A DNA stretch of 63,661 nt, filler included, from Kipferlia bialata (lineage: Eukaryota), in assembly GCA_003568945.1 (NCBI GenBank). It is 3 parts of 3 records of this genome, joined end to end, with 100 filler letters (N's around TTAATTAATTAA, not from the genome) between each part and the next. Parts side by side here need not be neighbours in the genome. Positions count along the whole stretch, not along the records: positions 1 to 24,932 come from BDIP01000216.1; 2 more parts are not named here. One strand, 5' to 3'. The notes below the pieces were generated by a model, which was given only the letters and a program-made list of their open reading frames with translations, ran no database searches and was not told the DNA's origin. A program made the translations under genes and the position numbers. Of this stretch, positions 812 through 34,872 are shown in pieces. Every line of letters starts with the position of its first letter. Within the stretch, counting starts at the first letter, position 1.

Positions 812-2370
812 ATGAAGCTTGCTCTTGCTGCTGTGCTCCTTGCTGTGCTCGTGGTCATTGAGGCCAGGGCCACCCACGGATTCGACCTCTCCTACTACCA
901 GGTACCCATTACCACCCATAACATTGCTTTAGTTGGCTTCTTGGCGTGTGTAGACCAGTTTGACAAATCCTGACCCTGACTCTCGTGTCGTGATTGAGGA
1001 CTGTATGTTAGCACTACTGACCTCAGGGAGACGTCTCCCAGTCCTCCTTCGACTGTCTGAAGAACGACGGCATGCAGTTCGCCATCTTCCAGGTATGAGT
1101 CAATCCCGCCCCATTTGTTACCTTTCCGCAGTGTTTGATGTAAACTTGATGTATGTCCTCTGCTTACGGCCCTTACTCCCACTTACCTCTAGGCCCAGAG
1201 GTCCAACGGAAAGTACAACTCCTACCTGAAGCACCAGTACGACCGCTCCGTCGCTGCCGGCATCAAGTGTACGTGTATGATTCATACTTCTGAGTCTACT
1301 ATCGTATTTCATTCTAAGCCAAATGCTGTCTTCTGACTCCAGACAACGACCACTACGTGTTCCCCGACACCAACAAGGACGCCAAGGTGATTTGGTCTGT
1401 CTGTATCCCTCTCCCTCTCTCTCTCTCTCTCTAATATTATATGTATCCCACTAACTTCAGTCCCAGATCAAGTCCACCATCGCCTCCATGAAGGCTGACG
1501 GTGTGCTCTCCAAGAACATGATCTGGGTGGATATCGAGAACACCGGTATGTATTACAGGGAGTATGAGTTATATGATGTCTGTTCCATTAATGTCTCTGT
1601 ATATCTCACCCCCAGACTACTGGTACAGCTCCCACTCCCAGAACATCCAGTTCCTCAAGGACTTCATCACTGAGGTATATCTTAGTATATACCATATGTT
1701 TAGACTGTGTACCTGGGCTCATTATTGTCTCTAGTCTCCATTTCATTCAGGTCAAGTCTTTGTTTTTGTGTGCCTCTCTCTATATATATGGACTATATCT
1801 AATCAGCTAGGCCAAGTCCCAGTACAGCTACTGCGGCACACTCTCTATATTATATAATAATGTCTTTGTATATATATATATATATATATTTATGGACTAT
1901 ATCTAATGTATCAGGCCAAGTCCCAGTGGAGCGTGTCTCTATATATATATATATGTATGAACTGTACTCTGTATCTTATGTATCAGGCCAAGTCCCAGTG
2001 GAGTGGCTGCGGCACACTCTCTATAATGTATTATAATGTCTTACTTAATTATATAGTTATGTATATGGACTATATCTAATCCCCCAGGCCAAGTCCCAGT
2101 GGAGCGGCTGCGGCACAGTCTCTATATTAGTGTCATTATATATACACATATATATATGTAAGGACTATATCTAATCACCTAGGCCAAGTCCCAGTGGAGT
2201 GGCTGCGGCAACAGGCACGGCTGCATCGGCATCTACACCTCCTCCTCCCAGTGGAGCGCCATCACCGGAGGCACCACCGTACGTAGAAGTCCCTCTCTCT
2301 CTCTCTTTCTTTCTCTCTCCTTTTCCCTCTCTCCTCCTCACCCCCAGGACTCCTTCTTCGCCAGACAATG

Positions 2371-2410
<40 letters not shown>

Positions 2411-2848
2411 AGTATATCACCCCTCACCCCCAGGACTCCTTCTTCGCCAACCTGCAGCTCTGGTACTGCCACTACGACAACAACGCCTCCTTCAGCGACT
2501 TCAAGGTACAGTGTTCATATCCACACATATATTTACATGTGTATATTAGTAGCAATGCTTCTGATGTTCCTCCCTAACTCTCTAGGCCTTCGGCCCCTGG
2601 TCCAAGTCCTAATTATATGGTGTTATATATGTGTATAATTCTTCCTCACCCTAGGCCTTCGGCCCCTGGTCCAAGCCCGCCATGAAGCAGTATACTACAC
2701 AGTTCATATATATGTGTACACTATATATTGATCAGATTATTGAATTGCTTACTTCTAGGCCTTCGGCCCCTGGTCCAAGCCCGCCATGAAGCAGTACACC
2801 GGCACCACCTCCAAGTGCAGCACCCAGATCGACAACGACTGCTACTAA
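812..2848 (+). CDS. Secreted glycoside hydrolase family 25 lysozyme (protist/nematode Lys1-like type), 9 exons
   Basis: Spliced product: MKLALAAVLLAVLVVIEARATHGFDLSYYQ|GDVSQSSFDCLKNDGMQFAIFQ|AQRSNGKYN...|...NMIWVDIENTD...|AKSQWSGCGNRHGCIGIYTSSSQWSAITGGTT|DSFFANLQLWYCHYDNNASFSDFK|AFGPWSKPAMKQYTGTTSKCSTQIDNDCY*. It has a signal peptide and the GH25 motifs G-D-S, WxDxE, GIYT, LWYxHY and FGxWxxPxxKQY. All junctions are GT-AG and in phase. Confidence 0.92.
1745..2210 (+). repeat. Tandem partial copies of the branch point + acceptor + exon start (GCCAAGTCCCAGT...) inside a lysozyme intron
   Basis: AG|GCCAAGTCCCAG occurs at 1811, 1915, 1987, 2088 and at the real exon at 2183. Most copies are preceded by GGACTATATCTAAT and separated by (TA)n. 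Confidence 0.9.
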
Positions 2849-3266: not shown

Positions 3267-5498
3267 ATGCGTACCTTGGCCCCCCTGGGACCCCTAGCGC
3301 TAGTGCTAGTAGCCATATGTGTATTGGCGGTATTGCTCCCTGCGGTTGATGCAAGGGGAGTGAGCTTCAAGCATGCCAAGCATGCCAAGTCTAAGAGTGT
3401 GGGCACAACAGGTATTGTGACCCAGACCAAAGAGGCCCCCACCCTGGCTGAGGGAGAGAGTGGCATTGTGTGGGAGGCTGTCCCAGAGAATGGAGCCCCA
3501 CCCGCAAGGTATCATGGCACTATACACACTGTATTATATATATAGTACATGTTGTATAAAATATGTATGCATATGTGTGTAGCGGGGGAAGCAGTGCCGC
3601 AGAGGGGGTAACCACGGCGCAGCCAATATCCTGGTTATGATTATATGTGGCGCATGTTATATGATCTCATATATATTTTTGTACATGTATATGATTTACA
3701 ATTGGTCAGCATGTAGTGTTGTAGTTGAAGTCTCACTCACTCTGTGGATCCAAGCTATGTATGGTTTGTTTCTTGCTATACTATCTTATCCCCCCCCCCC
3801 CTCCCCCCTAGTTTCCTTATATCCCCCTTGCTCATAGTTGCTGCTATTGGTATTCTCTCTCTTTCTCTCTCTCCCTCCCCACCACTCTCTCTCCATCAAC
3901 CCCCCCTTCACACGTCCATAATAGCTCTATATCCGTGGATCTCAGATCATCTCATTCTCTCTCCCCCATTCCATGTGTCCCCATTCTGACCCCCATAATC
4001 TGTCTATGATAGCGTATATGCTATACCTTCGGGCAGTGCTTGCATACCTGATGATGTGTATCTGGTATCTATTTATGATTCTGCGTGCCTCAGTATCCGT
4101 ATCTTTAATCATCTTCCATGACTTCCCTTTTCTGATCTCCAGGCGCTTAACCAACGTACAGTCATGTATATTAGTATTGTATTCCTCTCTCTGTGTATAT
4201 CCCTATATCCCTCTAGACTATCTATTCTGACCTCCATGCGCTTTGCCAACGTTCTATCATATATACTATTATTGTCTCCTCTCTCTCTTTTTATTTCATT
4301 ATATATCCCCCTAGACCATCTATTCTGACCCCCAGGCGCTATGCCAATGCCCTGCTCAAGGATGACGTGAGGGAGAGGTAGGACATGCATATATGTGTAT
4401 AGTGTACAATAGTTCTCACATTAAGTAATTCACTTAGATATGTATATATACTATGCCAATGCTCTGCTCAAGGATGACGTGAGGGAGAGGTAGGACATGC
4501 ATATATGTGTATAGTATACAATAGTTATCACATTTAGTGATTCACTGAGATATGTATGTGTACTATATGCCAATGCTCTGCTCAAGGATGACGTGAGGGA
4601 GAGGATACACACACACTCACACACACATACACACATACAATCATCTGCGTTTTCTGGGATAAGAAAGACACTTCCCTATATTGGTAATTAGTGGTAGTAG
4701 TTATGTATTCAGATGTATTTTGGGTTTCGGTTCCTCTCCCTCATTACTAAGTATAGGCTGATTGTCCTTGGTAGTACTGACAACATCAACTGTCTCTCTC
4801 TCTCTCTCTCTCTCTCTTCCCATCTGACTGTTTCTCATTCTCTCTACCCCCTTACAATAGGCTAATTGTCTTTGGTGGCACCGATACCATCAACTTCTAC
4901 TCTGACCTGTGGTTCTTCGACATACCCACCCAGATATGGCAGAAGGCTGCTGTTCTAGGTATATAGTTAATATTATAGTATAGTTAGAGTATAGTATAGT
5001 ATAGTTAGATCTGCAAGATGGTATATGAATTCATATTATGGTATATGTATGTAAATATGTTTTTCTTCGACATACCCACCCAGATCTGGCAGAAGGCTGC
5101 TGTGCTAGGTATATATATGTATCTATCTATCTATCTATATATATATATATGAGGAGAGAGAGAGAGACAGGGAGAGAGTACCCACCCAGATATGGCACAA
5201 TGCTGCCGTGCTTGGTATATATATATATATATATGTCTAAATTGATTCCATGGCAATTATATGGAGAGAAGTAGAGAGAGTGTGCCCACCCAGATAGGGG
5301 AGAAGGCAGTTGTGGTAGGTAGTATATATATATATATATGGATAGAGAGAGGGGGAGAGAGTACCTACCCAGATATGGCACAAGTGTACCCACCCAGATA
5401 GGGAAGAAGGCAGCTGTGGTAGGTGTTTTCAAGACTAGTGATAAGTGCTCTATGTACATATGTGCTGTACCCCCAGGCCGTGCTGCCCCAGTGGCATA

Positions 5499-5543
<45 letters not shown>

Positions 5544-6176
5544 CTAAACCTAGGCGCTGAGCCCCCGGGCCGTGCTGCCCCTGTAGCATTCCTAGACGGG
5601 GACAACATCTACGTTGGATTTGGGTTTCAGGTATATTCTTGTTAGATGATATGCGTATCCAACTTACGCACATAAGACGCACGTTTCAACTTTGATTCTA
5701 TTTGTCATTACATGTGTACACCTGACCTTCAGGACGATACCTTCTACTCCGACATGTGGATGATCAACCAGTATACATTATCTCTCTCTCTGTATATATT
5801 ATATATACATATTCATATATATATAATGTATAATATATTTAACCTAGTACCTTACTCCCAAGGATGACACCTTCTACTCCGATATGTGGATGCTCAACCA
5901 GGAGGAGATGATCTGGAACGAGGTCACCACAGACGTCTCACAACGTACGTCTACTATATACTTGACATTATTTCATTGTGTCGCTTGGTATTATTCTTAT
6001 ACATATATATAATACATAATGGATACCATAGTGTCTGTGGTCTGGAACGAGGTCACCACAGACGTCTCACAACAACGTACGTATCAGTTTCGTGATCTGT
6101 CACTCCGGCTCTCTCTCTACAACGTCTTATCTGACTGGTTGCAACGTGTTTTATGCCCAGTGTAGCTATTTATCTG

Positions 6177-6225
<49 letters not shown>

Positions 6226-6288
6226 CTAACACTAGGCTCCAATGTCTTCTATGCCCCTGTGGAGCACCCTGAGACACCTTTCTCTCTT

Positions 6289-6319
<31 letters not shown>

Positions 6320-7072
6320 CTCTTATTAACACCAGGCTCCAATGTCTTCTATGCCCCTGTTGAGCACCCCGACTGGGGCAACTGTCTGCTGATGTTTGGT
6401 GGGATGGTGGGGGACAGCGTGCTCAGAGGTATAGGACACACACACTCACACACGTCGCGTGTCTACCTCTGTTTCCTCTCTCTCTCTCTCTCTCTCTATC
6501 TGCCCCCTAACCCCAGACACCTACCTTTTTGTCCCATCTTCTCTCCCTCTCTCTCACTCTATCCTTATTCCAGACACCTACCTCTTCGAGCCATCCTCTG
6601 ACGGTGGTACCTTCCACTCCATAGACACCACAGAGGCCACAACACCACCCGCATGCAGTAACGGATGTGCAGTTAGCACAGGTATTGTATTGACTTGTTT
6701 GATGTATATTGCTTCAACCCTCACACGAGCTCTTGGCCTTATATGTAGGTATTGGATTATGATTTGAAAACTAACTATGAGGCAACACCGTGTACATGCA
6801 CGGTGGGTATGGTGGTCTGACTAACGAGGGGGAGGAGCTTGTGAACATTGAGACATTCAGGTTCAGGATAGAAGAGAATGGGGACATGGTGAGTATAGTA
6901 TGTATATATATATCCCCCCGATGTGAGTGTATTATAGTGTCCTGCAAATATAGTACTATATTTAGTATAATACTTACATTATGTACACTATATACCACTA
7001 ATTCTGGAACTGGACCTGTGTGGTCCACCCCCTATGTGAATGTATATATACTTCTAATCTAATGTTCTAATC

Positions 7073-7110
<38 letters not shown>

Positions 7111-7559
7111 ACTCATACTAGGACTGGACCTGTGTGTGGTCCACCCCCGATGTGAATGTATATACTCCCATATTATGCATAGTTATGCATAGTACATAAT
7201 AATATATATTTATCTCATTCTAGGACTGGACCTGTGTGTGGTCTGTCCCCGAGGACACCACTGGGGTACAGGTGCCACCTGGGGTGACAGGTACATATAT
7301 ATACAGTAGTATATATGTATGTATATCTATTTATATAGTGTTTACATGTATATATTTATGTATATCTATTTATATAGTGTTTACATGTATGGGTATATAG
7401 TTCACTGTGGTGCAGGTGCCACCTGGGTTTACAGGTGTGTATACATGAGAGTATACCATATATATCATTCTTAAGGATAGACCTTCTATCATTGTGTATC
7501 CTATCAATACATATTGACTCCAGACAAGTGCTGCTACCTGGACGTGACAATGTGTACAC

Positions 7560-7596
<37 letters not shown>

Positions 7597-9422
7597 CATC
7601 CTTCCTTACCATGTATCTCATCCCAGATCAGTGCTGATATATAAATGTGTATTGTACTATTATATATAAGTACATATCATATATAAGATATACATATGTA
7701 TAATAAGCCTCCCTTCTCACCCCAGACCAGTGCTGCTACCTGGACGAGGCAGGAGAGAACCTGCAAGTAGTCTTTGGCTGGCTCTCTTGGTCCGATGCCG
7801 ACTGGATGACTGACCTGTACTCTTTGTATCTGGATCCAACAGGTGTGTGTAGATAATAGTATATACCCATATGTATATATCCCATATGTATATCTAGAAA
7901 TTTTTTCGTGTAAGTGTATATGATTAAGTAGTAGTTTGTATGGTAGGTCAAGTATTGAATCACTGTAGTATAGTATTTCATTATAGTTGTTGATATATAT
8001 AGTTTGTGAATGGTCTCACACTACACTCTGACCCTGCCTCTGTCGTGTGGACCAAGACTTCTGGATGTGAATATTTATATATATATGTATTTTTGTATAT
8101 TTACATTTTCCGTCTCTCTTTCTTGTCCTATATATATATGAATGCATATATAGACTAACTGCAGACTCTGCCCCTGCCTCTGTGGTCTGGACCATGCAGG
8201 ATGCATTCATATATTGTAATATAGCTTATCTTAGTTTCTCTCTTTATATGGATAGATACTTCAGTACTGACTCTAGACTCTGCCCCTGCCTCTGTGGTAT
8301 GGACCAAGCAGGATACTTACACATCGACATGTTTTCATAGTCTCACTCTTGTATCTATGTATTTATATGCATACTAACTGTAGACTCTGCCCCTGCCTCT
8401 GTGGTGTGGACCAAGCAGGATGCAGGATGCAATATATGAAGTATAGTAATGCCTCTGTATTTGTATGCATACTCACTACAGATTCTAGCCCCTCCTCTGT
8501 GGTGTGGACCAAGCAGGATGCAGTTTTAGATAGACATTACTCTCTTTGTCTCTCAATGTCACTGTAGACTCTAACCCCTCCTCTGTGGTATGGACCAAGC
8601 AGGATGCAGACTTAGATAACGAGGACTCGGACGATGTGGTGTATGCAAGGTATAATATAATATTCCCATTTTGTCTCTTGATACATATCATCTAATGTAG
8701 TGTTCTCTCTAACCGATAGAGACTCTGTCCACATGATCACAGACCAGGGACACATATATATATCCATATCTCTCTTTATGCTATATACGTACATACATAT
8801 ATGTATGTATAAGTATGTATATACACTTACCCTCAGAGACTCTGCCCTCATGATCACAGACCAGGGGCGCGGCATAGTCTTTGGAGGTATCTATCTATAT
8901 ATATCTACATATATATATATATATATATATATTCATATTTATATTGTTCATATTTATATATATATATATATAAATATATATATACATCACCATCACAGAC
9001 CATGGGCGCGGCATAGTCTTTGGAGGTATCTATGGTCAATAAATAAGTATATTCATAAACGTATGTATATAAATGTTGTGTTTATGTGTATTTGTATACA
9101 ATGCCTCACTATCATACCAAGGACACAGAATAGTGTACGGAGGTATCAGTGGCATATGTATATATGTGTAAATTAATACATTTTCAGTGAGGGATATACT
9201 ATGTTATCGAGCCTGTTAGTATTATACTGTATGTACGTATGTATAACTATTTACACTCAGGCTGGGGTGAGGAGATTGACAACGACCTGCTCTACGTGTC
9301 TGCCCATGACCCATCCACACCTGGTGCCATAGCGGTGGATGAGATACACAGTGCATACGATGGGGTGCCAGGTATATTAGTGTACATGTATGTAATTTCA
9401 TGATTGTCTCTGTGGCTCATGC

Positions 9423-9463
<41 letters not shown>

Positions 9464-12400
9464 AATATATATATACATATATATCCTCCCTCTATTCTAA
9501 CCTCCAGCCCTTGTCTCTGTGGCCCATGCAACTAGTGGTGACTCCATATACGGGTTCGGAGGACAGACAGACGTGAGTACCTTGTTAATGTCCCGTTGGA
9601 AGTGTATATAGTGCATTGATTTGTATTTCAGAATTATATACAGTTAATTACTTACACACTAGTACAATGACGCCCTCAACACCTTCTTTGGATTCAACAC
9701 ATATATATATGTAGCACTATATGATATGTGTATAAGTATATACAATATTACAATACCCACACTTAACCATCCAGTATAACGATGCCCTCAACACCTTCTT
9801 CGGGTTCAACACAACGTCAAGCACGTGGTTCACACCATCGGCATCAGGTATCAGTATGGATAGTTTCTGTTTGTAGTGATCCTCTGTATATTTTTGTGCA
9901 GATATTTACAGGATTATGTGTTGTATATCATATATGTCGCTGATGTTAGGTGATCTTCCCCCCCTCTATGATGCCATGATGGAGTCCTGTATAATTGTAT
10001 TAGATCTAATATACTGTATGGATATATACACTAGTATATGCACATATACTTATTCTATTCCCCTTATCACAGGTGATCTGCCCCCCTCTAGATATGATGC
10101 CATGATGGAGTCATTTGGACCTGTGCTAGTGCTGTTTGGAGGCCAGGACGCAACAGGTACTGAGTGTAATACAATGTAGTATCCTATGTAGTTTAGTATA
10201 TACTCTGAACAATGAAATATTAATAACAGTGAGTCGTGTAAACTATTCACATATACATATATATAACTAATCCTCAGGTGGATTCCTCGATGACATGTAT
10301 GTGTACCACACATCGACAACACTCATGAAGCTGCTGGTGAGTGTATGTATATACATATTGTATTCCACATATACTCTTCACGAAAATGCTGTTGATTCCA
10401 TATGTGCTATTATCAGCTCTCATGCACTGATGGACGTCTCATGTATACTATCACTCATGCTCAGGAGACCGCCGGCACCCCTCCCTCTGCCAGGACATTC
10501 CTCATATGACCTCTATATACTATATACATTGCATTATATATATGTATTATGTATACTATATTATATATTATATCCCTATATATTCTCTCATATCCAGGAG
10601 ACCACCGGCACCCCTCCCTCTGCCAGGAGCTCAGCTGCCACAACCACAGTGGGTATGTACAGTGTAAACATATAGTACACCATATATATATATAGTATAC
10701 AGTGAATAGTAATATTCGCATATGTATATAGAGAGCCAGGAGTTTTTTTCAGCTGCCACAACAACAGTGGGTGAGTGCATTATATATATATTGTATACAG
10801 TGAATAGTAATATTCGCATATGTATATATATATAGCCAGGAGTTCAGCTGCCACAACAACAGTGGGTATGTATATGGAACATGTAGTATACAGTATATAT
10901 GTATATGCATTTATAGTATCTCTATGTCGTATATTTCTAGGGGCTCAGTTGCCACAACAACAGTGGGTATGTATTCATTGATATATAGACGTCGAATTAC
11001 TCTCTCTCTCTCTCTCTCTCAAACCCCAGGCGAGACCCTCTTCCTCCACGGTGGCCTGACCTCTGCCGGGGTGGATGGGGACCTATTCATGATCAACTAC
11101 ATTGATAAGGTATAGTGTGTATTCTCAATGTACTATGAATATATAAAGTGTTCTATAACTATATGATGGGAGGATGGAGACCTCTTCATGATCAACTACG
11201 AGTGCATTGATAGAGAAAGGAAGTATTACTCTTGATTTGTATGGAATGCATACATATTTGCAATACACTGATCCTAGATCTGGACCCCCCTGACCTCCCT
11301 TGAGACTGAAGGGTGCTCTCCCGTACTACGAACATCCCACAACATGGTGTTCATGCCAGATCCCAACAGTGATCCCGAGGAGACAAGTGAGTTACTATTG
11401 CAATGTCGCCGTCTCTCTCTCTTTCTATCTCCCCACGTCTCGTCATATCTCTCTATTCTCACATTCAGGCACATACTCTCTGTCTGATGGTGATCCATAT
11501 GTCCTCTCTCTCTCTCCCTTTGGATATGTGTGTTTGTATGTATGTATACATCACTCTCTTACCTTCAGGTACCTACTCGCTGTCTATATCAAGACAAGTG
11601 AGTAAGTATTCTCAAATACCGTTCTCTCTCTATGTATATACTAGTTACATATTAGATACATCAAACTCACATTCAGGTACCTACTCCCTGTCTGATGTAG
11701 ATGTGTACAAACAATCCCATTCTCTCTCTCGCTATTTATATGTATATCATTCTAATCTCTAGGCACCTACTCCCTGTCTGATGGTGATCTCTATGTCCTG
11801 TCTGGCCTGGACGAGAGTATGTGGCCGGTGGTGAGTGTATATATTAATATATACTAGTGTATATATTTATATATACATAGTATATGTTATTATAGTGCCT
11901 ATATTGTAGAAATATGAAATCTCTGTGGCAACGTGGATAAGAGGGTATATACATACATACTTCTCACCCGAGAACAGGAATGCATCTTCAATGCCGGTAT
12001 CAGACACACACAACAACACTCATATACATGCATGTACATGTAGCTGTGTAGGAAAGTGCATGTGTAAATCTAACCCCAGAATGGTATCTTCAAGGCAGTG
12101 ATCGACCTGGATGCAGAGACTGTGTGCTGGCAGGTAATGATGATATAGTGCAATTACTTAAGCGTGTGATTAGTATGGTATTTAGACTTACCATCAGACC
12201 TAGGACGACCCCGATGACTACTCTCTCTCTCTATACATACATTTACTGATGGTGCAAATACTATTCATTAGTGCTATATAGAATAGTCTGACACCTAGCA
12301 CGTTCAATATATTTATATATATATATATATATATATTACTATATGATTATATTCTGACACCTAGCACGTGGACGACCCCGATGACGTTGCCCCAGCATAT

Positions 12401-15400
12401 GCAGCTGCACCCGCCGCAGTGATAGGTATAGATATTATATATACATATTTAACATATCTGCCGCAGAATAGGTGGGTTTACAGTGCTCAATATAGTAGTA
12501 GGACATAGAGATAGTGTAAATCTCTCTCTGTCTCTCTGGTCCTCTCTATCTCCACCTCTCTCTGACTCTCTCCCCCTCTCACCTAGGCTCTAGGGTCCTG
12601 TCCACTGGCGGGTCAGGCACAGAGATGAGATCAGAGCCCGGTACGTGACCAAGTGTACGCGATATGTATATATATATTGACACATAAAGAAGGTTACCAA
12701 CATCGCCTGTGGCCTCTATATATATGTTTCATACAAATGTCGTCTGTTGTTAACTTCAGGTATCATTAAGGTTGCCGACTTTGCCCCTGGCCCTGACACC
12801 CCATCTCTGACTGAACTGGCACTGGAGGGAGATACAATGGAGAGGAACAGAATGTCATACATGACGGTATGTAGTGGCAAATACACACACACATATATAT
12901 ACATAGAGAGAGAGAGAGAGATTGTCTGATGAACTGGCACTGGAGAGGAGGTCATACATGACGGTATGTTCTGATGCACTGACTATATTCTATTGTCTAA
13001 GTGATGTTAGTAGATGCATTTTGTACTTATACTCACCCCCAGGGCATGGCCGGCACCTACTATTAACCTATCCTCTGTCCAATATCAGTACATAGTGTAT
13101 ATAAACATGTATCACTCTATACCCTCACCCCCAGGGCATGGCTGGTACCCAATTGATCACCCTGGGTGGGTATCTGGTCAACACAGCAACATCGCCACAG
13201 GTACATATTTATAGATACATACACACACACATATATATAGATGGATAGATAGATGGATACATAGATGGATATGGATATATGGGTATCTGGTCAACACAGC
13301 CACAGGTACCGTGATATAGATTGATATATATGAATATATATAGTGGTATATCTGGTGAACACACCAAAATCGCCACAGGTATATATATGTAGGTACATAA
13401 GGAGTAACAGTTACACTCTTGTCCTCCATCTTACCTTAGGGCAAGAAGGTGCCCTCTGTGTGGGTGACTGACCTATCCCCCATATGTACAGGGGATGGGT
13501 CAGATGACGAGGGGTGCTACCCTTGTACAAAGTGAGTGCACAATATATATATGTGTGTATATATATGTGTGAATATATATAGTGTATAATACACCTGGTC
13601 CCATATGCACAGGGGATGGGTCAGATGACGAGGGGTGCTACCCATGTACAAAGTGAGTATATTAGTATATATGGGTGTACATATATATGTNNNNNNNNNN
13701 NNNNNNNNNNNNNNNNNNNNNNNNNNNNNNNNNNNNNNNNNNNNNNNNNNNNNNNNNNNNNNNNNNNNNNNNNNNNNNNNTATGTACAGGGGATGTGTCA
13801 GATGACGAGGGATGCTACCCATGTACAAAGTGAGTGTATCTACAGGTGTAGTATATTGGTGTATTATTCATACTCCTAACCCCAGGGGTACTGTCTACTC
13901 CTCCGAGACTGGCCAGTGCGAGGCATGTGCAGCTGGGTCATACGCAGCACAGGTAATGTGTACATATATACATATATAGTTTATGTACGGAGTATATAGA
14001 TAGAGTATAATGTGTATGTGAATGTGAGGCATGTACAGCTGGGTCATACGCTGCTCAGGTATTATATAGATGTAGATATACACATAATGTACATATATAC
14101 AAATGGTATTAGTATATAGAAAGTGTATAGTATATATATGAATGTGAGGCATGTGCAGCTTGGGCCCACGCAGCACAGGTATACTATACTTAAATTTAAG
14201 CATAATTAGTGTATATGTATTTACCCTTTAGTGAAATATATTGCACTTCAGGACCTCGTCAAAAGTTCAATCATTGTAATTGATTGAGTTCTAACACATA
14301 CACTGATTGATTCTTGAGGCTAACACTTCAGGACGGCCTGTCTGAGTGCACTGCCTGTCCCATGGGTTTCTACAACCCATACACACACGCAGAGAGCAGG
14401 TGAGTGTAGATGAATATATACCTACATATATATAAATGTATATTCAATACTACCCATACACACACGCAGAGAGCAGGTACATTGATATTTACGATATATT
14501 GACATAGGCGTATTACGCAATGCAATAGCATACCATACACAAAAATATCTTGGGCAAGTGGGCGTATATATATATATCCCTCCGGACCCTCTGTTTTGCT
14601 TGCCCCTCTCTCTCTCTATACTCTCTATACTCTATACTCTTTACTATACACATCTTCAGAATTACTACCTATATATATTTGTAATACATATGGGATTATC
14701 CTACACATTAGTGACCTCAGGATCTTCTGCTTTGCCTGCCCCTCTGGTACCTACATGTATACATACATATATATATACCCATATATCACCCACATATTAC
14801 TAGTATATATATATCCCATTGTGTATAACTCCAGGATCTTCTGCTTTGCCTGTCCCTCTGGTACTTACAACGATGAGATAGGCCAGGCAGAGTGCAAGAC
14901 GTGTTGGGACGGTATGTGTACAAACATATATACACTATATATGCATTGATAGAAGAGTGGGATTATTGTATACATGAGCATGTATGAGATAGGCCTGGCA
15001 GAGTGCAAGGCGTGTTGGGGTGGTACGTATCGGTATATACATTCAGTATTTGTGTGGACACACACACATATATATATATATATAGAAGAGTATGATGGGA
15101 AATACATTATACTTCGGTTTATACTATATTAGCCTTACCCCAGGCTACACCTGCCCTGTTGCCAGCATCACCCCCTCTGAGTCTGACTCTGACACAGACA
15201 CAGTGGTGTCTGTAACACCTGAGCCTCTGGAGGTATATATAGTACATACCTACAAGTATATGTGTCGAATAGTGTATGTATATATACCCTCTGAGTCTGA
15301 CTCTGACACGGATACGGTGGTGTCTGTAACACCCCTTCCCCTAGAGGTATGCTATACATATATATGTATATATATATAGTACATATAGAGAGAGATATGT

Positions 15401-16912
15401 AAGTATATACCCTCTGACTCTGACACGGATACAGTGGTGTCAGTCACACCAGAGCCACTAGAGATACAAATGTACAGTATACATATACCAGTATGAGTGT
15501 ATTCTTGTATTCTTGTATTCTCGTTGCAGTATCATGACTCTGTTTGACCTGTGACATATATTGACTTCTATTGACTTCTAGGTTGACCAGGACAAGGTTG
15601 ACCGGTACCTTAAGCTCCTGTACATCATTCTGGGGGGCATCTGTGCCTCTGGACTTCTAGGTACTACTCTTTCTCTCTCTCTGTTTCTATCCCTTTCTCT
15701 GTTTCGTTCTCACTACATTACTGATCTGTGGCAACAAGGCCCACTCTCTCTCTCTCTCTCTCTCCCTCTCTCTCTTTCTCTATACATCCTTATATTTACA
15801 TATATGTATATTATTACATGTATGTGTGTGTTTGTACGTATTCGTTAACATGCGTACTATCTTTAACTTACACTTATTCTTTACATATTTAGTCTCTGAC
15901 CCCAGTCTCTCTCTCTCCCTCTTTAGGTCATTCTCTCTCTCTCTCTTCTGACCCCAGTTCTTATCTGTGGCAAGACCCACCTGATCAAGAAGATTGATCT
16001 CTTTGCTTTGAACTATGTCTTCACCGTACCAGCAACACTGGGGTGAGTACTCTCAGTGTATACAGTGTATATATATATTGGACTATATATATGTATATAT
16101 TGGTATAGTATATATAGATATATTGGAAATACTCCATTCGCCACGCCAATAGTCATTATATATATACATATATATATATATGTGTGTGTGTGTGCGTTCA
16201 TTCATATGGAAGTGTGAAGAAGAGTAGTATTGATTAATAATACCAGGAGTATGACGACCTGGATCGGCGGCTTCATCTGTTACTCTATAAATACAGAGTA
16301 CATGTATTCAATGTGTTTTACTATCCCTAACCATCAGCTCTAAGACCACCTGGATAGGAGGCTTCTTCTCAGCTGTCTTCATCTGTTCCTTTGTTGTCAT
16401 GGGCTCTGGTCTGGTCATACCCTACCTCTACACAAACATATCAGAGGATAGGGGTCTGGTGCCTCTGTGTCTGGCCTCTACAGTGCTAACTGGCAATATG
16501 ACAGGTACTATACAAATAGTGTATAGTATATGAATATATCGGAGGACAGGTGACTAGTATCCCTTCGATTAGCATCGACGAGCTAGTATGGTGATACCAC
16601 CTCGCTTTCCCTGCATCTCTCTCACTCCCTTATCATACTTGACATGTCCTTCACTGGTCTCTATCTGCATCTCTCCCCATATATATAAGGATATATGTAT
16701 ATATATATATGTATATATTAATAACCCCTTAGTTGACATGGCCTTCACTGGTCAGTTCGATGACTATTCTCTCTCTTCCTCTCTCTCTCTCCCTCTCTCT
16801 CTCTCTCTCTCCCTTTCCATCTATATATACATGTTTGTATCTAACCCCTTAGTTGACATGGCCTTCACTAGTCAATTTGATGACTGTTCTATAAATCTCT
16901 CATCCATATATA

Positions 16913-16946
<34 letters not shown>

Positions 16947-18667
16947 ACCCTCCAGTTGACATGGCCTTCACTGGTCAGTTTGATGACTGTGCCCTGATAG
17001 CCGATGGGGAGTATGGCACATGCTCATCAGATGTGACAGGTACAGGATTGTTATGTTTGAGTATAGCATGAATAATAATATGTGTAGTTGGTATCTCAAG
17101 TAGATGCGTATTTGTATGTCTCACCGTCAGTGACTGCCCCACCTTGACATCCACAATGTATAAGTAGTTATGTATGGATATCGATATTAGTAATGTGTAT
17201 CCTGATGTAGAATACTAGTCTCCTGTCTCACCCTCAGTGACTGTCCCCAGTGACATCAACACTGGGGGTGTGTACACACAGACATGCATGCAGGTGAGTA
17301 GATGATAGGCATATATATAATAGTATTATATACAATATTGTAGACGCATATATTGTAACACACAGACATGCATGCAGGTCAGTTCAAGGAACCCTAAGTT
17401 ATAGTATATGAATATGTATACTGGTGAGGCTTGTATGTGTCTCACTGAGCAACAAACACGAGGCTCTTTCTCTTCCTCTCTTACCCTCAGTCCTCCCTTG
17501 CCTCTGGGACAGCTGACACTACGGCATGTGCAGTCAGAGGTATGGTATCGTATCTATTTTGTTGCCATTATCCACGTCCTCTAATCCCATTGGTGAGTGT
17601 ACTTCTATATTTCGTGTTTATAAGAGAATACTGTGTATTTCGTGTCCACTCATCCTCAGTCGAGATCCAGGACGCCTTGTTGTCCAGCAGAGATTGTATT
17701 ATATTTATATGTCTATATACAGTATATATAAATATGAATAGTGTATCTAATCCTCAGTCGAGATCCAGGATGCCCTGTTGTCCAGCAGAGAGTCCGAGTT
17801 CAGTCTGCAGATTCTGGGGTCGGGGGAGTACTTCGCTTCAGCTATAGGTACGGAAAAGTGTTTGTATGGTGTTGTAAGAATATAGTAGCTATATGTATAC
17901 AGATTATTATTATTTTATTTGTTATTCACTGTAGAGTAACCCCACATGTGTTCTAATATACTCTGTTATATAAATATTTGTTATATAGTACTTCTTACCT
18001 TCAGACTGGGAGGTATCCTCCAATGCATCCAACCCTGGCCAGATATCGAGGTATGTGTATATATATATGTATTGTATTATACTTATATATATATATGCAA
18101 CATTACTATCCTTGCCCCATCTCTAGGTATAGTTACGCGATTCAGTGTCCGGCGGCGGATATGTACGTATATTTACGAAGGTAATTGTACCCCTCCCACA
18201 CCAGCATTGGTGGCACCCTCCTGCCCTACACCGGCATGACATTCAGAGGCACAACGACACCGACAGAGGTACATATAGGAGACGATATATATGTATTCAT
18301 ATGAGAGTACATTGATACTATTCTTAGGTAATCTTTATCCAATCCTCTTTGACCCCCAAGGTATGTAACTTCCTCTCCACCGAATCCTTGTATGACACAG
18401 CAGTACTTGTATATATGTTCAACAGAATTACTAGTGTCCAAAATCTAGATTGGCCTCTTCTCCACCGAGTCCATGTATGACATAGTAACACTGTATCATT
18501 CACACTAAGCTGCTTATATTCTTGTGTAACTCTTCAATAGTCCAGAATATGTCCCCTTACCCATTAGATTGGCCTGTTCTCCACCGAGTCCATGTATGAC
18601 ATTGAGTATGAGGACGAGGGGGAGGACAACCCAAGCACGGGAAGGATCTTTGAGGTATATATATAAG

Positions 18668-18704
<37 letters not shown>

Positions 18705-20319
18705 TGTACTTGATATTCGAGGTATGGACCCTCTGACTCTCTCTCTCTTTTGCTTTCTCTATGTCTTTTCATTTCATCAGTCCATCGAGAATTCGTTGTG
18801 TTTCATTGTATATATATATATGTTTCTTTGTGTGGGTGGTATGGTGTGTGAATGTGGATGTCTCTATGTATACAACAGTATTGTGTTAACCTCTCACCAT
18901 CCAGTTCATTGGCTATGAGAGGGGTACCATGGTTAGCAACGTGGACTTCCACGACGAGAACGGAGTCAGGTAGAGTATGGTTGTATATGTGTACATTAGG
19001 GATTTGAGCTATCTTTGTAATATCGTTACATATGGATAGGTCCAACAAGAGGTGGTTATGCGGTGGTATATATGTTATGCTCTTACCCCCAGTGTCACCT
19101 TCATCCTGGAGAGGAGTGGGGGTTTCCATCTTAGCAGTAACACATATACATGTATTCACTGAATACATATATAGTGTCTGCACTCTCTCTTTTTACTCTT
19201 ACATCAGCGTCACCTTCATCCTGGAGAGGAGTGGGAGTATCCCTTTAAGGAGTAGCGCTTATATATCATAGTTATCATATACTCTCTGTATGAACTGTGT
19301 TACTCTTACCCCAGCGTCACTTTCATCCTGGAGAGGAGTGAGAACGTCCTGTCCTGGAGCAGAAGCATCGTACGTATCATGTCCTGCTCTCTCTCTCTCT
19401 CTCTATATATATACTTATATATATTACTCTCCCTGTATGTTCATATGGTTTATATATCTCACCTCTAGGTCCAAAACCCAGCCGCCTTCGCAGCTGCAAT
19501 CCTTGGTTCATACACTGGTCTCCAGGGTGAGTGGATATATATCATATATTTACCTATATTACATTGGTCTCCAGGGTGAGAGTATATATAGCTACACCCA
19601 AGTACGTATGTGCTCCAGTACAATGTAATTGTAGTCTATCTAGGCTCACCCCCAGGGTCTGGTATTCATGTATTGTGTATCAATATGTAAATGAAAGAAT
19701 ATGCAACAATACGTTATGATACTCACCCCCAGGCATGTTTGGGTCTGGTGTTGGGTATGTCCGCACTGTGTGGGGCTGGGCCAAGGGCAGGTATGTATGT
19801 ATATGTACTATTAGGATTAATACATTCAAGTCGTAATTATCATGAACCTCTCTCACCCCCAGGTGGGGCAAGGAGAAGCTCCAGAAGAAGCTGGCCAGAG
19901 TGCACACCAAGAGCAGCAGAGAGCAGGTACCACTTCTATGGATATCCTTATATCTCTACCCATTCATCAACATACTATGTATTGTATTAATACTATCATT
20001 GTATATGTGTTAACACACCAAGAGCAGCAGAGGCGAGCAGGTGCGTAAGCATGATACCTCCATATATATCTTCAATCGAACTATTCTCCATTCATTAGTA
20101 TATACATACGCATATATAATAGTGTATTTTTGTGTATATATACATTGAGAGCAGCAGAGGCGAGCAGGTGCGCATATGCACACATCCTATCTCCATATCC
20201 CATTCATTCAGATATTGATACATCCTTCCCACGTACGTGATCTATTAGCTCATCCTCAGGTCCCAGCTGGGCCGGGTTACATCAACCCACTGGGAGTAGT
20301 CCCCACTGCAACCGTGTAG
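3267..20319 (+). CDS. Large secreted/membrane protein: signal peptide, many Kelch repeats, Cys-rich ephrin-receptor/GCC2-GCC3-like repeats, then several TM segments
   Basis: Signal peptide MRTLAPLGPLALVLVAICVLAVLLPAVDA. Kelch exons include RLIVFGGTDTINFYSDLWFFDIPTQIW, LLMFGGMVGD, VYMHGGYGG, LVLFGGQD and LFLHGGLT. Cys-rich exons include CEACAAGSYAAQ, CTACPMGFYNP, CFACPSGTYNDEIGQAECKTCWDGYTCP. TM exons are LLYIILGGICASGLL, WIGGFFSAVFICSFVVMGSGLVIPYL and AAFAAAILGSYTGLQGMFG. The last exon is VPAGPGYINPLGVVPTATV*. Not every internal junction was verified. Confidence 0.8.
8017..8610 (+). repeat. Six tandem acceptor/exon-start copies (ACTCTGCCCCTGCCTCTGTGGT..GGACCAAGCAGGA) in a Kelch-gene intron
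   Basis: Copies near 8023, 8165, 8277, 8384 and 8482; the real exon starts near 8568 (DSNPSSVVWTKQDADLDNEDSDDV). Confidence 0.88.
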
Positions 20320-20647: not shown

Positions 20648-22594
20648 TTACTCCTTCTTCTCCTCCTCCTTCTTCTCGTCCTTCGTCATGGAGTCAAGGA
20701 TGGTCTGAATATAAGGGTGTAGAGGGGGAGAGAGAGAGAGAGAGAGGAGACCGCTGTGATACCTGGAGGGCAGTCTTGACGTTGCCAGTGGCGGGTCCCT
20801 TGGGGAACCTGTGGGGTAAGCGAGGACATAAAGAGAGACAGGGGAATACTTCTGGATACCACACAATATACATGATATATACACACCTGAGGAGGTATGA
20901 CTTTGGCAGGTTGTCCTTCTTCTTGTCGGCCTCCTTCTCTCCCTCCTCCTTCTTCTCCTCCTTCTTGTCGTCATCACCTGGGGTGAGGTTGGTGTATATA
21001 ACACATGCACTGTCGAATACAGTACATAAGAATATATATATATTTGTATATATACACAGTACCTGGCATGGGGACTGCTGCTGCATAGTTGACCAGGGCC
21101 AGCTGCACAAAGTTACCCTCCCTGTCGCCTAGAGTGAGAAGAGAAGCATGTCAAAAGAGACTGGGATATGTAAGATATCCGTATAGAGAAGATATCATTG
21201 CATATATCTTGAGAGAGAGAGATAGAGCCATGTACCTAGGGACAGGGATGCTGTGATGGGAGCATTGAGGACAAGCACACCGGTCCTCTCACGCCTGGGG
21301 TGAGAAGGGGAGAGAATTTACACAAATGGGTTGCAGCACTTAACAATCAGAGACAAACGAAAGAATTCTTAGGATCACCATCCTTTAACGCAAGAGCGCA
21401 AATATATACAAGAATAATATTATGTACTAATATGTATACACTCAACCATACCTGAACACCAGTCTGCCACCCTCGCCCTCCTCGGCCTTGTTGACCTGGG
21501 GGTCAGGGGGAGATGGTATAAATGATAACATNNNNNNNNNNNNNNNNNNNNNNNNNNNNNNNNNNNNNNNNNNNNNNNNNNNNNNNNNNNNNNNNNNNNN
21601 NNNNNTATGTAAGTAAAGAGAGTCCTCCTCGGCCTTGTTGACCTGGGGGTCAGGGGGAGAGAAGATCTATATATTCAATGCATATAAATAATATACACAA
21701 TAAGTATAACACACCTTGAGGGTACCGGTTCCCAGCTCCACCCACTGGCCTGACTCCCCAATGGCATAGCACTTGGCACGCTCGGAGGCCATGGCCTTCT
21801 CTCCCTCCTGGGGGTTGGACGTACGGTGGAGGGAGGGTCATATATATAGTAAAGTATAATAGAAATAGCAGATATTTATGAAGTATATCAGCATACCTCG
21901 CCAGTGGCCACTACCACAATGGCACATAATACACACACACACACATATATATATACATATATACATACACACCTCTCCTGTGGCCACTGCCACGATGGGT
22001 GCCTTGGCCTTGGGCTTCTCGGGCGAGGCAGGCTTCTGGAGGTGAGGGGTGACATATACAATACACATATATATGAACCTATCATTCTGCTTCCACACAC
22101 TTCAACCATATCCTGCTCGTTCTCTCATGTATTCATATCTTATATATACCTCCTCCTCCTTGGTCTCCTCCTTCTCAGTGTTCTATATATACATTTATAC
22201 ATATATATATATATGTGTGTGAGTGTATAATCTACCTATCCACATATATATCTATCCATATATGGTATATACCTCCTCCTCCTTGGCCTCCTCCTTCTTC
22301 TCAGTGTTCCATGCGGCAGGGGGCTTGAACTTGAAGTCACCTGGGGTTATACAACATATCATACCATATCTACTACTACATATTATATATACAAGTGGGA
22401 ATATATATGTATTATTAATTATACCTGTGCCGAATGCAAAGGAGTAGTCTGGCTTAGACATCTACTAATACAGAGTATATATAGAGTAAATGCAGTGTAC
22501 ATATATATATATATCCTAACCTGTGCCGAATGCAAAGGAGTAGTCTGGCTTAGACATCTACTAATACACAGTACATATAGAGTAAATGCAGCGC

Positions 22595-22632
<38 letters not shown>

Positions 22633-23291
22633 CCTAACCTGTGCCGAATGCAAATGAGTAGTCTGGCTTCTTGTCGGTGGGCTGGTTCTGGCCAAAGTGG
22701 AACCCAGAGATCACGGGCTTCTAGAGATTAGATAGAGAGAAAGGGAGAACCATAGTATATGGGAGAGAGCGAAAGGGAGGGAGAGAGTGCAACCCAGATA
22801 TCACAGGCTTCCATAGATTAGAGAAAGAAGGGGGAGAGAGAGAGAGAGAGAGGTATTGCAGGGGAGACAGACCCTTACCTCAACTAGCTTCTCCTCCTCC
22901 CTCACCCCCCTCCCTCTCTCTATATAAATATACATATGTATATATACTTGTATCAATATATCTTTACCTCAACTGGCTTCGCCTCCTCCTCCTCCTCCTC
23001 AACGGGCTTCTCCTCCTGGGGGTTAGAACAAGGGTGTTAGAAGCAGAGAGAGAGGGAGAGAAAAAGAGAGGGAGACAGAGAGACAGAGAGACAGAGAGGA
23101 AGAGAGAGATGTAGTGGGGATGTATATACCTCCTTGGGCTCCTCCTTCTGCTTGACCACGTCATGTATATATATACACATATATATATTAATGTATACAT
23201 ATATATGCATACCTCCTTGGACTCCTCCTTCTGCTTGAACAGGTCAACCTGGGGCATGGGGGCAGCGGCCTGGAAGGTAAGGGTGTGTATA

Positions 23292-23329
<38 letters not shown>

Positions 23330-24049
23330 TAGCAGCCTGGTACACTAGTATGTATGGAGATAGATAGCTAGAAAGATTCATGGTACGCCTGGCTGTAAGG
23401 ATGCTGAAAGTGTAGAGAACGAGTGGGAGTGAATGGGTATCTAGTGATATGGTGAATCCATAGAAGAGATACAGTATCAACTGTGTTCAATGACGCTACA
23501 CAAATAACACGTTAAGCGTATAAGAAGTCAGACTGTATATAATCCGACCCGTGTCTCAGCGTAAACGATACGAGTACCGGGGGATGCACACAGTCCAGCC
23601 ACATCAAGATACGATGGATTGATTACAAGTGGTACTGGTATGTACCACCTACTCCCTCTACACCCAAATGTATACACTATAATGCACACAAATCCTCCCT
23701 ACCTTTACTGGCTTGGCGAAGTTGAATGCGAAGGGGGCACCGGCGTTGAATGCAAAGGTGTTGGCGGGGGTGGCCTCTGGGGCCTTGGCATCGAAGGAGA
23801 TGGCCGTCTTCTTCACCTTGGGCTGGCCGTCCTTGTTCAGACGACGCCTGGCCTTCAGAATCACACGCTCCTTCAGCACCTCGGGGGCGGCAGTGCCCTC
23901 CTCAGCGTCGCCAAGGGAGTTGGCATCCTTATCCACAGGCTGCTTCTCAAAGGAATCCCTAGGGTCAATGGCGGTGTAAAGAGTGCACTGCAGCGGCCCA
24001 CACTGCTCTGGCCTTACCTATCAATGGGGTCTGCCCTACGCTTTCCCAT
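20648..24049 (-). CDS. NUP50: Nup50/Nup2-like nucleoporin (importin-alpha-binding N-terminus, FG-like repeats, C-terminal RanBD)
   Basis: Spliced N-terminus MGKRRADPIDR|DSFEKQPVDKDANSLGDAEEGTAAPEVLKERVILKARRR matches the Nup50 pattern (KR...A.EVLKxRxIxKAxRR). FAFN/FAFG/FKFK motifs follow. C-terminal RanBD-like exons: VATGE|EGEKAMASERAKCYAIGESGQWVELGTGTLK|VNKAEEGEGGRLVFR|RERTGVLVLNAPI. Confidence 0.8.
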
Positions 24050-24931: not shown

Positions 24932-25032
24932 ANNNNNNNNNNNNNNNNNNNNNNNNNNNNNNNNNNNNNNNNNNNNTTAATTAATTAANNNNNNNNNNNN
25001 NNNNNNNNNNNNNNNNNNNNNNNNNNNNNNNN
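24932..25032. other. Artificial contig-join linker (N-run, TTAATTAATTAA, N-run)
   Basis: A six-frame-stop 12-mer flanked by Ns; genes on both sides are truncated. Confidence 0.95.
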
Positions 25033-25145
25033 AAATTTACTATAAAAATGTATATGTATGTATAGTTAACACCATCAATTAGAATGACAATTTGGTGTAA
25101 AAGGCTAATTACCTTGTACATCTACTTGTATATATATGCCAATAC

Positions 25146-27192: not shown

Positions 27193-27236
<44 letters not shown>

Positions 27237-27685
27237 GTGTACATCTGGTACAATAAGGGTGTAGAGGGAGAGAGAGAGAGAGTATATACCTGGCACAAAT
27301 GACAGACACTGGGGCTTGGTGTTGAGGCTGAGGGCAGCTATGCATGTGCCCTGGGCCACGTTCCAGATACGCACACGCCTGGTATTAAGGGTGTAGAGGG
27401 TAAAGAGGGTGTAGAGAGTATTAAGGGTGTAGAGGGTATCAACGGTGTAGAGGGTATTAAGGGTGTAGAGGGTATTAAGGGTGTAGAGGGTATCAAGGGT
27501 GTAGAGGGTATTAACAAGAGTGCACATAAGTGTGCTGTGTAGAGAGATACTGGGAGCATATATGCAGTGAAATACCTGTCGAATCCAGCTGTGGCCAGTC
27601 TGGTGCCACCTCTCTCTCTCTCTCTCTCTCTGTATATATATATATATAAATATACCTGTCGAATCCAGCTGTGGCCAGTCTGGTA

Positions 27686-31631: not shown

Positions 31632-31632
31632 A

Positions 31633-32242: not shown

Positions 32243-34872
32243 CCTTGACACCAGTGTCCTCCAATTAATGAGAAAAGGGGCTAGAGGGGGAGAGAGAGAA
32301 TGCAAAACACCCATATGCCAATCTCCTTCTCCCTCGCCTTGTCTCTCTCTCTCGAAAACGCCAATTCTCAAATAGATATTTCCATTGCTGTTGATAACGA
32401 TTCAATATATATACATATTTATATATATATACCTTCTCGCCAGTCTCCTTCTCCCTCCGCCTCTTCTTGGCAACCTGACGCCTGGCCTGATTGTGAGATA
32501 TGCACACATCAGATATACATACACATATATACTCACCTGGTTACGCACTCCCTCTGTGAACAGGAACTCTCTCTCTCTCTCTCTCTATCATATAGCATAT
32601 ATATTAATATATATATATATGTATAGTACATACACTATATACTCACCTGATTGCGCACTCCCTCTGTGAACAGCAATACTCTCTCTCTCTCTCTCTCTCC
32701 ATATATATATATATATAATATTAATATATATACAAACATATGTATTTATACCTGGTTGCGCACTCCCTCTGTGAACAGGAACTCTCTCTCTCTCTCCCCC
32801 CCCCCCCTCCCCCCTTCCCTCTCTTTCAATATTCACATATATATAAACAATTGTATATATGTGTATAGTACATATACGAACCTGGTTGCGCACTCCCTCT
32901 GTGAACAGGAACTCTGCCTGTGCGTCCTGAAATAAGGGTGTAGAGAGAGAGAGAGAGACAGACGCACCCATACAACAATACCCATAAATACACACATTAA
33001 TATTCATATTCTCCCATACCTTGACGTGCTTGGCCACCACTGCGTGCTTGGCATGGGTGACAGAGGCAGCATAGCCTGGTATTAAGGGTGTAGAGAGAGA
33101 GAGAGAGAGAGAGTAGGCATGGGTGACAGAGGCAGCATAGCCTGGAAATAAGGGTGTAGAGAGAGAGAGATGGAGAGAGAGTGCACATGGGTGACACAAG
33201 CAGCAACTACACACACACACACACATATATATATCTACAATACTAATTTTACCTGATCAAAGAAGGGATTGAGATATATATACCCTACTTGCCGTCTGCA
33301 TGTTCACAGGGTTGACCTCCTCTATATATATATACAATACTATATAATGTGCATATATAGGTATATAGGTGAATACTATCTCTGACCTGCTGTCTGCATT
33401 TTCAAGGGGTTCACCTCCTCCTGCACCACGGCCAATATACTATCAATATCTATATACTACACTTAACACATACTCGTATTTATATACATATAGTATATAT
33501 CATTTCCCTACCTGCCGTCTGCACATTGAGTGGATTGACCTCCTCCTGCACCACAGCAAGGTGGCATATATATATTATATACTATATACACTATATATAA
33601 TAATACACCATACTCAATACAGCTGATGATAAGGGCCTAGCGAGGGAGAGAGCTATATATTACCTGCCGTCTGCATATTGAGTGGATTGACCTCCTCCTG
33701 CACCACGGCCAGATGGCATATATACTATATACTATTTAATTATTATTTAATTATTATTTAATTTACTATATATACTATATACCTAACACATATATGTATG
33801 TATACATATAGTGTATACATACCTGCTGTCTGCATATTGAGTGGATTGACCTCCTCCTGCACCACAGCCAGATGGCCAACAGGTGCATATATACTATATA
33901 CACTATATATACTACACTATATACATATACACATAGTATCTATATACCTGCTGTCTGCATGTTCAAAGGGTTCACCTCCTCCTGCACCACAGCCAGGTGG
34001 CACAGATACTATATATACTACACTACATACTATATGCATATACAGCTGATGTTAAGGGTCTAGAGAGGGGGAGAGAGAGAATACCTGCTGTCTGCATGTT
34101 CAAGGGGTTCACCTCCTCCTGCACCACAGCCAGGTGGCCAACAGGCACGTTGATGGCGCCACTCGCAATGAGCTTCTCTCTGGTGTTAGAGAGAGAGATA
34201 GAGAGACAGAGAGAGAGAGACAGGTACGTTGATGGCGCCACTCGCAATGAGCTTCTCCCTAGGGTTAGAGGAAGAGAGAGATAGATAGATAGAGAGATAG
34301 AGAGAGAGGCACAGTGATGGCGCCACTCGCAATGAGCTTCTCCCTAGGGTTAGACATATACATACAGGCAAATATATATATAAGGAGAGAGAGAGAGAGA
34401 GAGAATCACAATGAGCTTCTCCCTGTAGTGTTAGAGGAAGAGGCGAGAGAGACTATCTGTTGTATTAGAGAGAACGGAAGCCTATGGGGAAGACCGGGAG
34501 CTTCTCCCCTGTATGAGAGAGACAGGGATAGATTGCGGGAGAAAGAGGAGCATCAATAATAGTTGCGCTTGCAATCAACGGACGGACACAGACGGAGAGA
34601 GAGAGAGAGAGAGAGTACTAGAGGGGGGGGGGGGGGAGGTATATACATTATCTATTCACTACTAGTCTAAGTCAATATGTCAACAGCATACAAATATGTC
34701 ACAACGTGAGATATGACAGAAAACGTCATTGGTGATATGCAGTAGAGACTGCTAGATGCAACAGAGACACCCAACTCACGTACAGGATGCAGTCGAACAC
34801 GGATCTGATGGCTGGATCGTTCCGTCTGATGTTGCCAACCTCCTCGCAGACACGGCATTGGATGCTCCCCAT
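25146..34872 (-). CDS. PRP17: Pre-mRNA-processing factor 17 / CDC40 (WD40 splicing factor), 3'-truncated at the contig end
   Basis: Spliced segments INVPVGHLAVVQEEVNPLNMQTA, AEFLFTEGVRNQ, YSEWHNPAQYKALGRTYTQVP and ATVPRHCCHTWVNAHPKGVSALVWAPKSGHMFVSGGMDGKVKLWD parallel CDC40 (GPENPF; F.FEQQRR; YDYQGRSY; LPKK.IH.W.GHTKGVS). Further WD40 exons: CIRTFHGHTRPITS, WSEDGTRLATAGFDRRVRIWN, HFVTSAEDKQLVMWE. The start codon at 34872 is tentative. Confidence 0.82.
27383..27512 (+). repeat. About 7 copies of an 18-nt minisatellite (TATTAAGGGTGTAGAGGG) in a PRP17 intron
   Basis: Direct repeats visible at 27383-27512; they produce the spurious TLYTLN ORF. Confidence 0.9.
33286..34140 (-). repeat. About 7 tandem copies of an exon 3' end plus donor (EEVNPLNMQTA|GT) in a PRP17 intron
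   Basis: Real donor near 34084; copies end near 33948, 33823, 33664, 33511, 33387 and 33290. Confidence 0.88.

Follow-up and report, generated by a model that had tools for sequence, protein, structure and literature searches.

In Kipferlia bialata, the segment that starts at position 9663 of the window, by which we mean the whole stretch of 63,661 nucleotides analysed here, repeats part of an intron-exon junction in tandem and is not used by the one RNA contig seen. Its likely source is another functional but diverged allele of the copied exon, and not the present exon that adjoins it. The feature is real, far exceeds chance and belongs to a gene-wide pattern; the mechanism proposed for it is likely but unproven.

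The copy at 9663 and its exon in KIPB_001496

KIPB_001496 of K. bialata was the single protein found by protein search at 100% identity to a 55-residue exon of the host gene, and it maps exactly on 47 GT-AG exons (Table 1). This exact mapping fixes the reading frame, so that all five differences between the copy and the exon at 9775 (copy/exon letters C/T, T/C, C/T, T/C and A/G) lie at codon position 3 and are silent; the copy and the exon have the translation YNDALNTFFGFN(T) in common. With an AG directly adjacent to it (9661-9662, compared to 9773-9774 for the real exon) and 39 of the 73 exon nucleotides aligned at an offset of 112 nt (9663-9701 against 9775-9813), the copy has the composition of a partial-exon tandem duplication. 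The preliminary description had pointed to a decoy with five of five synonymous differences that runs into (TA)n. The differences were confirmed in full; AT-rich sequence does follow the copy, but only as a short (AT)5 and not as a long (TA)n. The term decoy fits as well, since the acceptor of the copy has a score as high as that of the real one, yet the RNA contig takes the latter. The best donor behind the copy is weak (score 1.9 vs. 3.3 for the 5th percentile of real donors), and use of the acceptor at 9662 shifts the frame and leads to a stop codon. A recursive splice site is ruled out by the letters AG/TA at 9661-9664, where no GT directly follows the AG.

Two sequencing runs, X1 (DNA) and X2, were viewed as contigs over positions 4800-10500 only; X2 is RNA by our guess, and its contig 9 (4197 nt) joins the GT-AG exons of this region without alternative letters. 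Between 9371 and 10073 this contig holds 138 nt, equal to the exons 9508-9572 and 9775-9847 together, and X2 has zero depth in the bin with the copy and a depth equivalent to ~70 nt in the bin with the exon. An mRNA joining the TAC AAT GAC variant to the rest of the exon, which the preliminary description suggested to look for, was not found at contig level, as X2 uses 9775; contigs drop rare forms and the X2 contig therefore shows the main mRNA form only.

A similar pair had been reported at 5733 and 5862. The three silent changes and the I/L difference are present, but the real exon starts at 5863, one base away. Since leucine is common to two paralogs, the isoleucine arose in the copy. The X2 contig enters this exon at 5863 and neither at 5733 nor at 5848, where annotated KIPB_001496 starts the exon 15 nt early with an additional YLTPK; the two paralogs likewise favour 5863.

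Taken alone, the pair 9663/9775 has a chance of 5e-4 if all differences are neutral and of 6e-3 if silent drift of the real exon is allowed for. At least three silent and no replacement differences were found in 3 of 114 anchored copies, and as the pair was chosen afterwards from many, the argument is based on the counts across the window.

Table 1. Positions of the copies, their exons and neighbouring elements in the window.
Feature	Position	Strand	Basis or remark
Host gene KIPB_001496, 47 exons	3267..20319	+	Kelch repeats and ephrin-receptor-like Cys repeats; exact protein mapping
Upstream exon, end phase 0	9508..9572	+	Protein mapping; RNA length arithmetic
Acceptor of the copy, branch-point-like CTTAC to AG, score 5.8	9651..9662	+	Unused in RNA contig
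9663 copy, first 39 of 73 nt of next exon	9663..9701	+	5 silent, 0 replacement differences
(AT)5 tract at free end of the copy	9701..9710	+	Sequence; putative junction
Real acceptor, score 5.5	9762..9774	+	Protein mapping; RNA contig
Real exon, phase 0, used in RNA contig	9775..9847	+	Protein mapping; RNA contig
5733 copy, acceptor-side	5733..5771	+	3 silent differences and L>I vs. exon
Real exon of second pair	5863..5944	+	RNA contig start; paralog comparison
Five acceptor-side copies of exon 8568-8649, similarity graded	8025..8532	+	Intron-exon alignment
Six donor-side copies of exon 34179-34085, two interleaved silent-site classes	33290..34001	-	Intron-exon alignment

Partial copies in the introns of five genes

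The window contains 292 local repeats, and five genes that hold most of them were chosen for modelling, which resulted in 98 exons, all open and bounded by GT-AG. An automatic gene finder predicted 83 instead of 47 exons in a test gene because it mistook copies for mini-exons, and the models were therefore curated by hand; four of the five were hand-made without RNA, and all counts come from this window. Alignment of each intron to its two flanking exons yielded 140 fragments, of which 26 were excluded as unanchored or too short, and clustered mismatches in two copies were masked for the rate ratio. This left 114 splice-site-anchored partial copies (59 acceptor, 55 donor) in 72 families and 93 introns. 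At least one anchored copy was present in 59 of the 93 introns, the 114 copies amount to ~1.2 per intron, and intron length increased by ~105 nt per copy, with a median of 124 nt for introns without and 295 nt for introns with copies. In the modelled genes, copies make up much of the intron length.

None of the 114 copies comprises a complete exon (maximum 93%), compared to ~15% expected under a simple random-placement model. Their splice sites score near the real ones, and a strong partner site within 170 nt was found for only 5 of 59 acceptor and 4 of 55 donor copies. A branch motif of the type CTVAC or CTTAC lies within 16 nt of the acceptor AG in 66 of the 93 introns of the five genes. Mutually exclusive exons were rejected because not one of the 114 copies is complete with acceptor and donor; the RNA contig shows real exons only, but rare forms are dropped from contigs. 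Intron gain by tandem genomic duplication was rejected as well, as the part common to the 9663 copy and exon 9775 contains no AG/GT in register and only 13 of the 114 copies contain one. Introner elements are not a suitable explanation either, since each copy matches its own adjoining exon and the region 9508-9850 shares no 21-mer with the rest of the window.

Outward from the free end, (TC)n tracts of at least four units were found in 39 of 114 copies (acceptor side 24 of 59, donor side 15 of 55), vs. none of 114 for (GA)n of the same minimal length on either strand. Compound tracts ran from TC to TA or from TA to GA 15 times and in the reverse order twice, and 15 of 21 sense-strand (GA)n tracts in modelled introns sit directly before a donor-side copy. 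This strand-symmetric polarity points to a process at a 3' end at the DNA level and not to splicing.

Several other observations were made in the window. Donor-side copies of a 42-nt exon at 4339-4603 are only 3-4 nt short at the acceptor end and come closest to a whole-exon copy. Intron-only duplications of similar style occur at 7309-7390 and, on the minus strand, at 27380-27530 and 28700-28950, the latter two being tandem runs of an acceptor-tail unit that resembles CCCTCTACACCCTT. The density of local repeats depends strongly on the gene, with 90 in 25000-30000 vs. 3 in 35000-40000 and 8 in 45000-63661. An open stretch of 1158 codons with Filamin/Ig-like repeats (46313-49786) is intronless in an otherwise intron-dense genome. 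The genes at 812-2848 (+), 20648-23958 (-), 25146-34179 (-) and 39666-42144 (+) resemble those for a GH25 lysozyme, a Ran-binding nucleoporin, a Prp17/CDC40-like WD40 protein and a histone deacetylase, respectively; single-exon Pfam scans gave matches only for the histone deacetylase exon (weak) and the long Ig-like exon. The window consists of three joined scaffolds, so that gene order across the N-flanked TTAATTAATTAA spacers at 24933-25032 and 49791-49890 is meaningless.

The silent excess and its possible sources

Unique differences between copies and exons amounted to 108 silent and 82 replacement changes, which corresponds to a replacement/silent rate ratio of 0.20-0.22 (bootstrap 0.16-0.29; 0.21 when stratified by base pair and CpG). 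The bias extends to acceptor-side copies, as the preliminary description had proposed, with a ratio of 0.17 in acceptor and 0.24 in donor families. Individual genes had ratios of 0.50, 0.25, 0.57, 0.17 and 0.0, and the values of 0.50 and 0.57 come from two genes with few copies (3 and 6 families). Nearest copies alone gave 70 silent to 40 replacement differences (P 5e-7 against 0.40), and 61:39 remained after the pairs at 9663 and 5733 as well as the richest family were removed (P 2e-5 against 0.40). Some silent bias is expected because a working exon tolerates only silent change, so that a decaying adjoining copy would yield a ratio of 0.5. Clonal duplication and decay simulated under the same detection rules gave 0.54, with a minimum of 0.32 in 150 runs, and reached ~0.22 only with added silent divergence, the observed ratio there being 0.20. 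The copies thus fail the expectation of at least 0.5 for a single lineage. We argue that gene conversion or collapse within a clone would likewise give 0.5, and rejected both on this ground.

Divergence reached 0.195 at silent and 0.043 at replacement sites, with a silent excess of 0.11 per site. For 21 copies with related intron flanks, divergence was 0.178 in the flanks, as far as low-complexity alignments allow, 0.190 at silent sites and 0.020 at replacement sites (8 seen, 36 expected). Among 38 replacement cases in the Kelch gene, paralogs agreed with the residue of the real exon in 14, with that of the copy in 1 and with both in 1, and 22 were uninformative. The replacements had BLOSUM scores equal to random, being no more conservative than chance, and the copies contained two stops and four indels, three of them frameshifting. 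The replacement differences therefore look like later decay of the copies, which are under no protein selection now.

The simplest source of the silent excess would be diverged working alleles joined by recombination, as far as can be judged from sequence comparison. Adjacent copies differed from each other by 57 silent and 38 replacement changes (ratio 0.23). Informative sites were interleaved and not ladder-like in 11 of 17 cases (7 of the 11 from one family), and 17 of 70 copy pairs had the free end in common; such mosaic order and common junctions within arrays are the pattern expected of interallelic exchange. In the array that follows exon 34179-34085, GTC AAT CCA CTC AAT is present in three copies where the exon has GTG AAC CCC TTG AAC, and these copies are flanked on both sides by exon-like ones. 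A predicted split into sister- and homolog-templated copies was absent by flank class, as the silent rate was equal (0.19) in copies with unrelated and related flanks. A refresh that starts at the splice site would pile up replacements at the free end, but they were not clearly enriched there (0.54 vs. 0.48, P 0.19). No alternative letters indicating a second haplotype were seen in the X1 and X2 contigs over 4800-10500, and metagenome scans with a protein query and an acceptor-motif query found nothing, so that we infer the allelic donor only.

Clonal tandem duplication followed by decay would need no such second haplotype, provided that working exons change silently several times faster than copies residing in introns, be it by exon-specific mutagenesis or by shifting codon selection. 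Some families do form ladders (6 of 17 sites), copies of higher rank are more diverged (rho 0.37), and CpG transitions were counted in 23 of 107 differences at silent sites, compared to 3 of 74 at replacement sites. However, the ratio is still 0.21 under CpG strata, changes occurred in both directions (C>T 32, T>C 19), and differences private to the inner copy, 13 silent to 8 replacement, also depart from expectation (0.26; P 6e-4). In addition, intron flanks are as diverged as silent sites and replacement sites are not, and with equal rates the explanation is rejected by the simulation, which together make it rather unlikely.

Alternatively, copies might sometimes be translated via alternative or non-canonical splicing and be maintained by protein-level selection. 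The strength of their splice sites is compatible with this idea, rare isoforms would be lost from contigs, and the 13 copies with in-register AG/GT, in which a chimeric splice is possible, are more silent-biased (29:10). We nevertheless judge it quite improbable, because the 101 copies without AG/GT still show 110:74, offsets are spread evenly across frames (34/45/35), and the replacements are derived in the copy and radical. Stops and frameshifting indels in the copies, the frameshift at acceptor 9662 and the exclusive presence of real exons in the RNA contig also argue against translation.

That two alleles of a heterozygous sample were placed in tandem during assembly would explain a silent bias, as allelic differences would show one, and the assembly is built from short reads according to parts of PMC5874029. 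The preliminary description had made its case dependent on both versions occurring on one DNA molecule. This was observed for 5733/5863, which are both carried by X1 contig 2, and not for 9663/9775, where X1 has a hole (9766-9956) and no bridging contig; X1 is, moreover, possibly the source of the window itself. Such an artefact is nonetheless very unlikely: independently assembled X1 contigs over 5554-5941, 7612-8313 and 8285-8534 (contigs 5 and 6 for the latter two) have 0 differences and a normal depth of 377-412, with 294-416 as the range of the eight listed X1 contigs. Copy and exon thus adjoin in these places, and the depth is not halved. A misjoin at 9663/9775 is also unlikely, since 9508-9850 contains no gap and no 21-mer repeated within the window and the longest run common to copy and exon is 17 nt. 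Furthermore, up to six different copies lie beside one exon, some of them with stops, and RNA shows a single version. A nearly identical paralog at another genomic locus as the template, for which one could invoke that the gene has paralogs and that the search in a fragmented assembly was less than genome-wide, is the least credible explanation, since the closest paralogs found are 36-47% identical and thus too distant as donors (e.g. GTVLNTLLAFN at the place of 9663/9775), no close short fragment was found and the pattern recurs in five unrelated genes.

A possible origin and its implications

On balance, we consider it fairly probable that the copies are tandem duplications with microsatellite junctions, carry one splice site each and derive from haplotypes ~11% apart at silent sites. 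A unit of ~80-150 nt ending inside an exon would first be duplicated, probably through the repair of a break or a template switch on microhomology between microsatellites; the junction holds a (TA)n or (TC)n tract. Metamonads are described in parts of PMC8516963 as lacking canonical NHEJ and retaining meiotic genes, and were inferred there to lean on homologous recombination. Subsequently, only copies with one splice site may survive: exon recognition needs both sites, so that a copy of a complete exon would be included by splicing and then purged, and copies with a single site are tolerated for this reason. Exon definition and loss of whole-exon copies may thus explain the absence of complete copies. 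Recombination between haplotypes ~11% apart at silent sites would then place copy and exon on different allelic lineages, either at duplication, by unequal pairing of the copy with the exon of the other haplotype, or through an exchange of alleles later on; for most of the path that separates them, copy and exon would consequently have been coding sequence. The last step, which can be followed in the replacement differences, is random decay of the copy, amounting to ~4% at replacement sites. A more speculative version, which we regard as possible but doubtful, is that in Kipferlia, which lacks canonical end joining, breaks inside exons are routinely healed by (TC)n(TA)n extension of the 3' end and re-priming on the homolog, whereby the exon end of another haplotype is brought in and the old one is archived in the intron.

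Internal (intragenic) tandem duplication, reportedly treated by Gao and Lynch in 2009, is similar when it spans a splice site, as a short head-to-tail repeat of intron end and exon part creates a spare splice site. In contrast to it, the copies described here occur at ~1.2 per intron, never include a whole exon and have a silent bias beyond one lineage. Intron gain by tandem genomic duplication also involves tandem copies of exon sequence with splice signals, but here existing introns grow by ~105 nt per copy and no new intron was shown. Mutually exclusive exons such as SCN exons 5a/5b are adjoining copies that differ mainly at silent sites as well; those are both used and have both splice sites, whereas Kipferlia copies have one site, occur in any frame and decay. 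Microhomology-mediated or polymerase-theta repair and breaks at TA repeats similarly give rise to short tandem duplications whose junctions are microsatellites or microhomologies. With regard to scars of polymerase theta or alternative end joining, the analysis covered the junction sequence; the strand-symmetric polarity of (TC)n then (TA)n and the allelic signature were derived from this window. Finally, the copies resemble animal pseudoexons and decoy splice sites in providing strong, unused intronic splice sites.

The genome paper on K. bialata reports 124,912 GU-AG introns and a SPAdes assembly, and does not mention such intronic copies in the parts of its main text that cover introns and assembly (PMC5874029). 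Kipferlia is not named in the main text of PMC9860276 according to a term search, and no description of such copies was found in the literature, mostly open-access main texts.

Gene finders and read mapping are misled by the copies. Intron definition is the main mode of splicing in protists according to parts of PMC2397502; in contrast, strong acceptors that are left unused in front of the used one, in introns of ~100-700 nt, point to exon definition. The spliceosome of K. bialata is reduced to 87 of 174 proteins, as stated in parts of PMC6679479, and the skipping of strong acceptors in short introns would turn this species into a natural test case for exon definition among protists. Sex is unobserved in metamonads according to parts of PMC8516963, and copies from two haplotypes would imply recombination in such a group. 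If the silent excess is allelic, thousands of copy/exon pairs per genome could be used to estimate recombination and ancestral diversity. If exon ends are indeed archived, introns would be stacks of former alleles, rendered harmless by exon definition, a single genome would provide past diversity (~0.1 per silent site) together with proof of metamonad recombination, and the same process may build microsatellite-rich introns. Copies of exon starts or ends that differ mostly at silent positions in most introns of five genes would, if they descend from diverged working versions of the gene, make one genome a record of past recombination.
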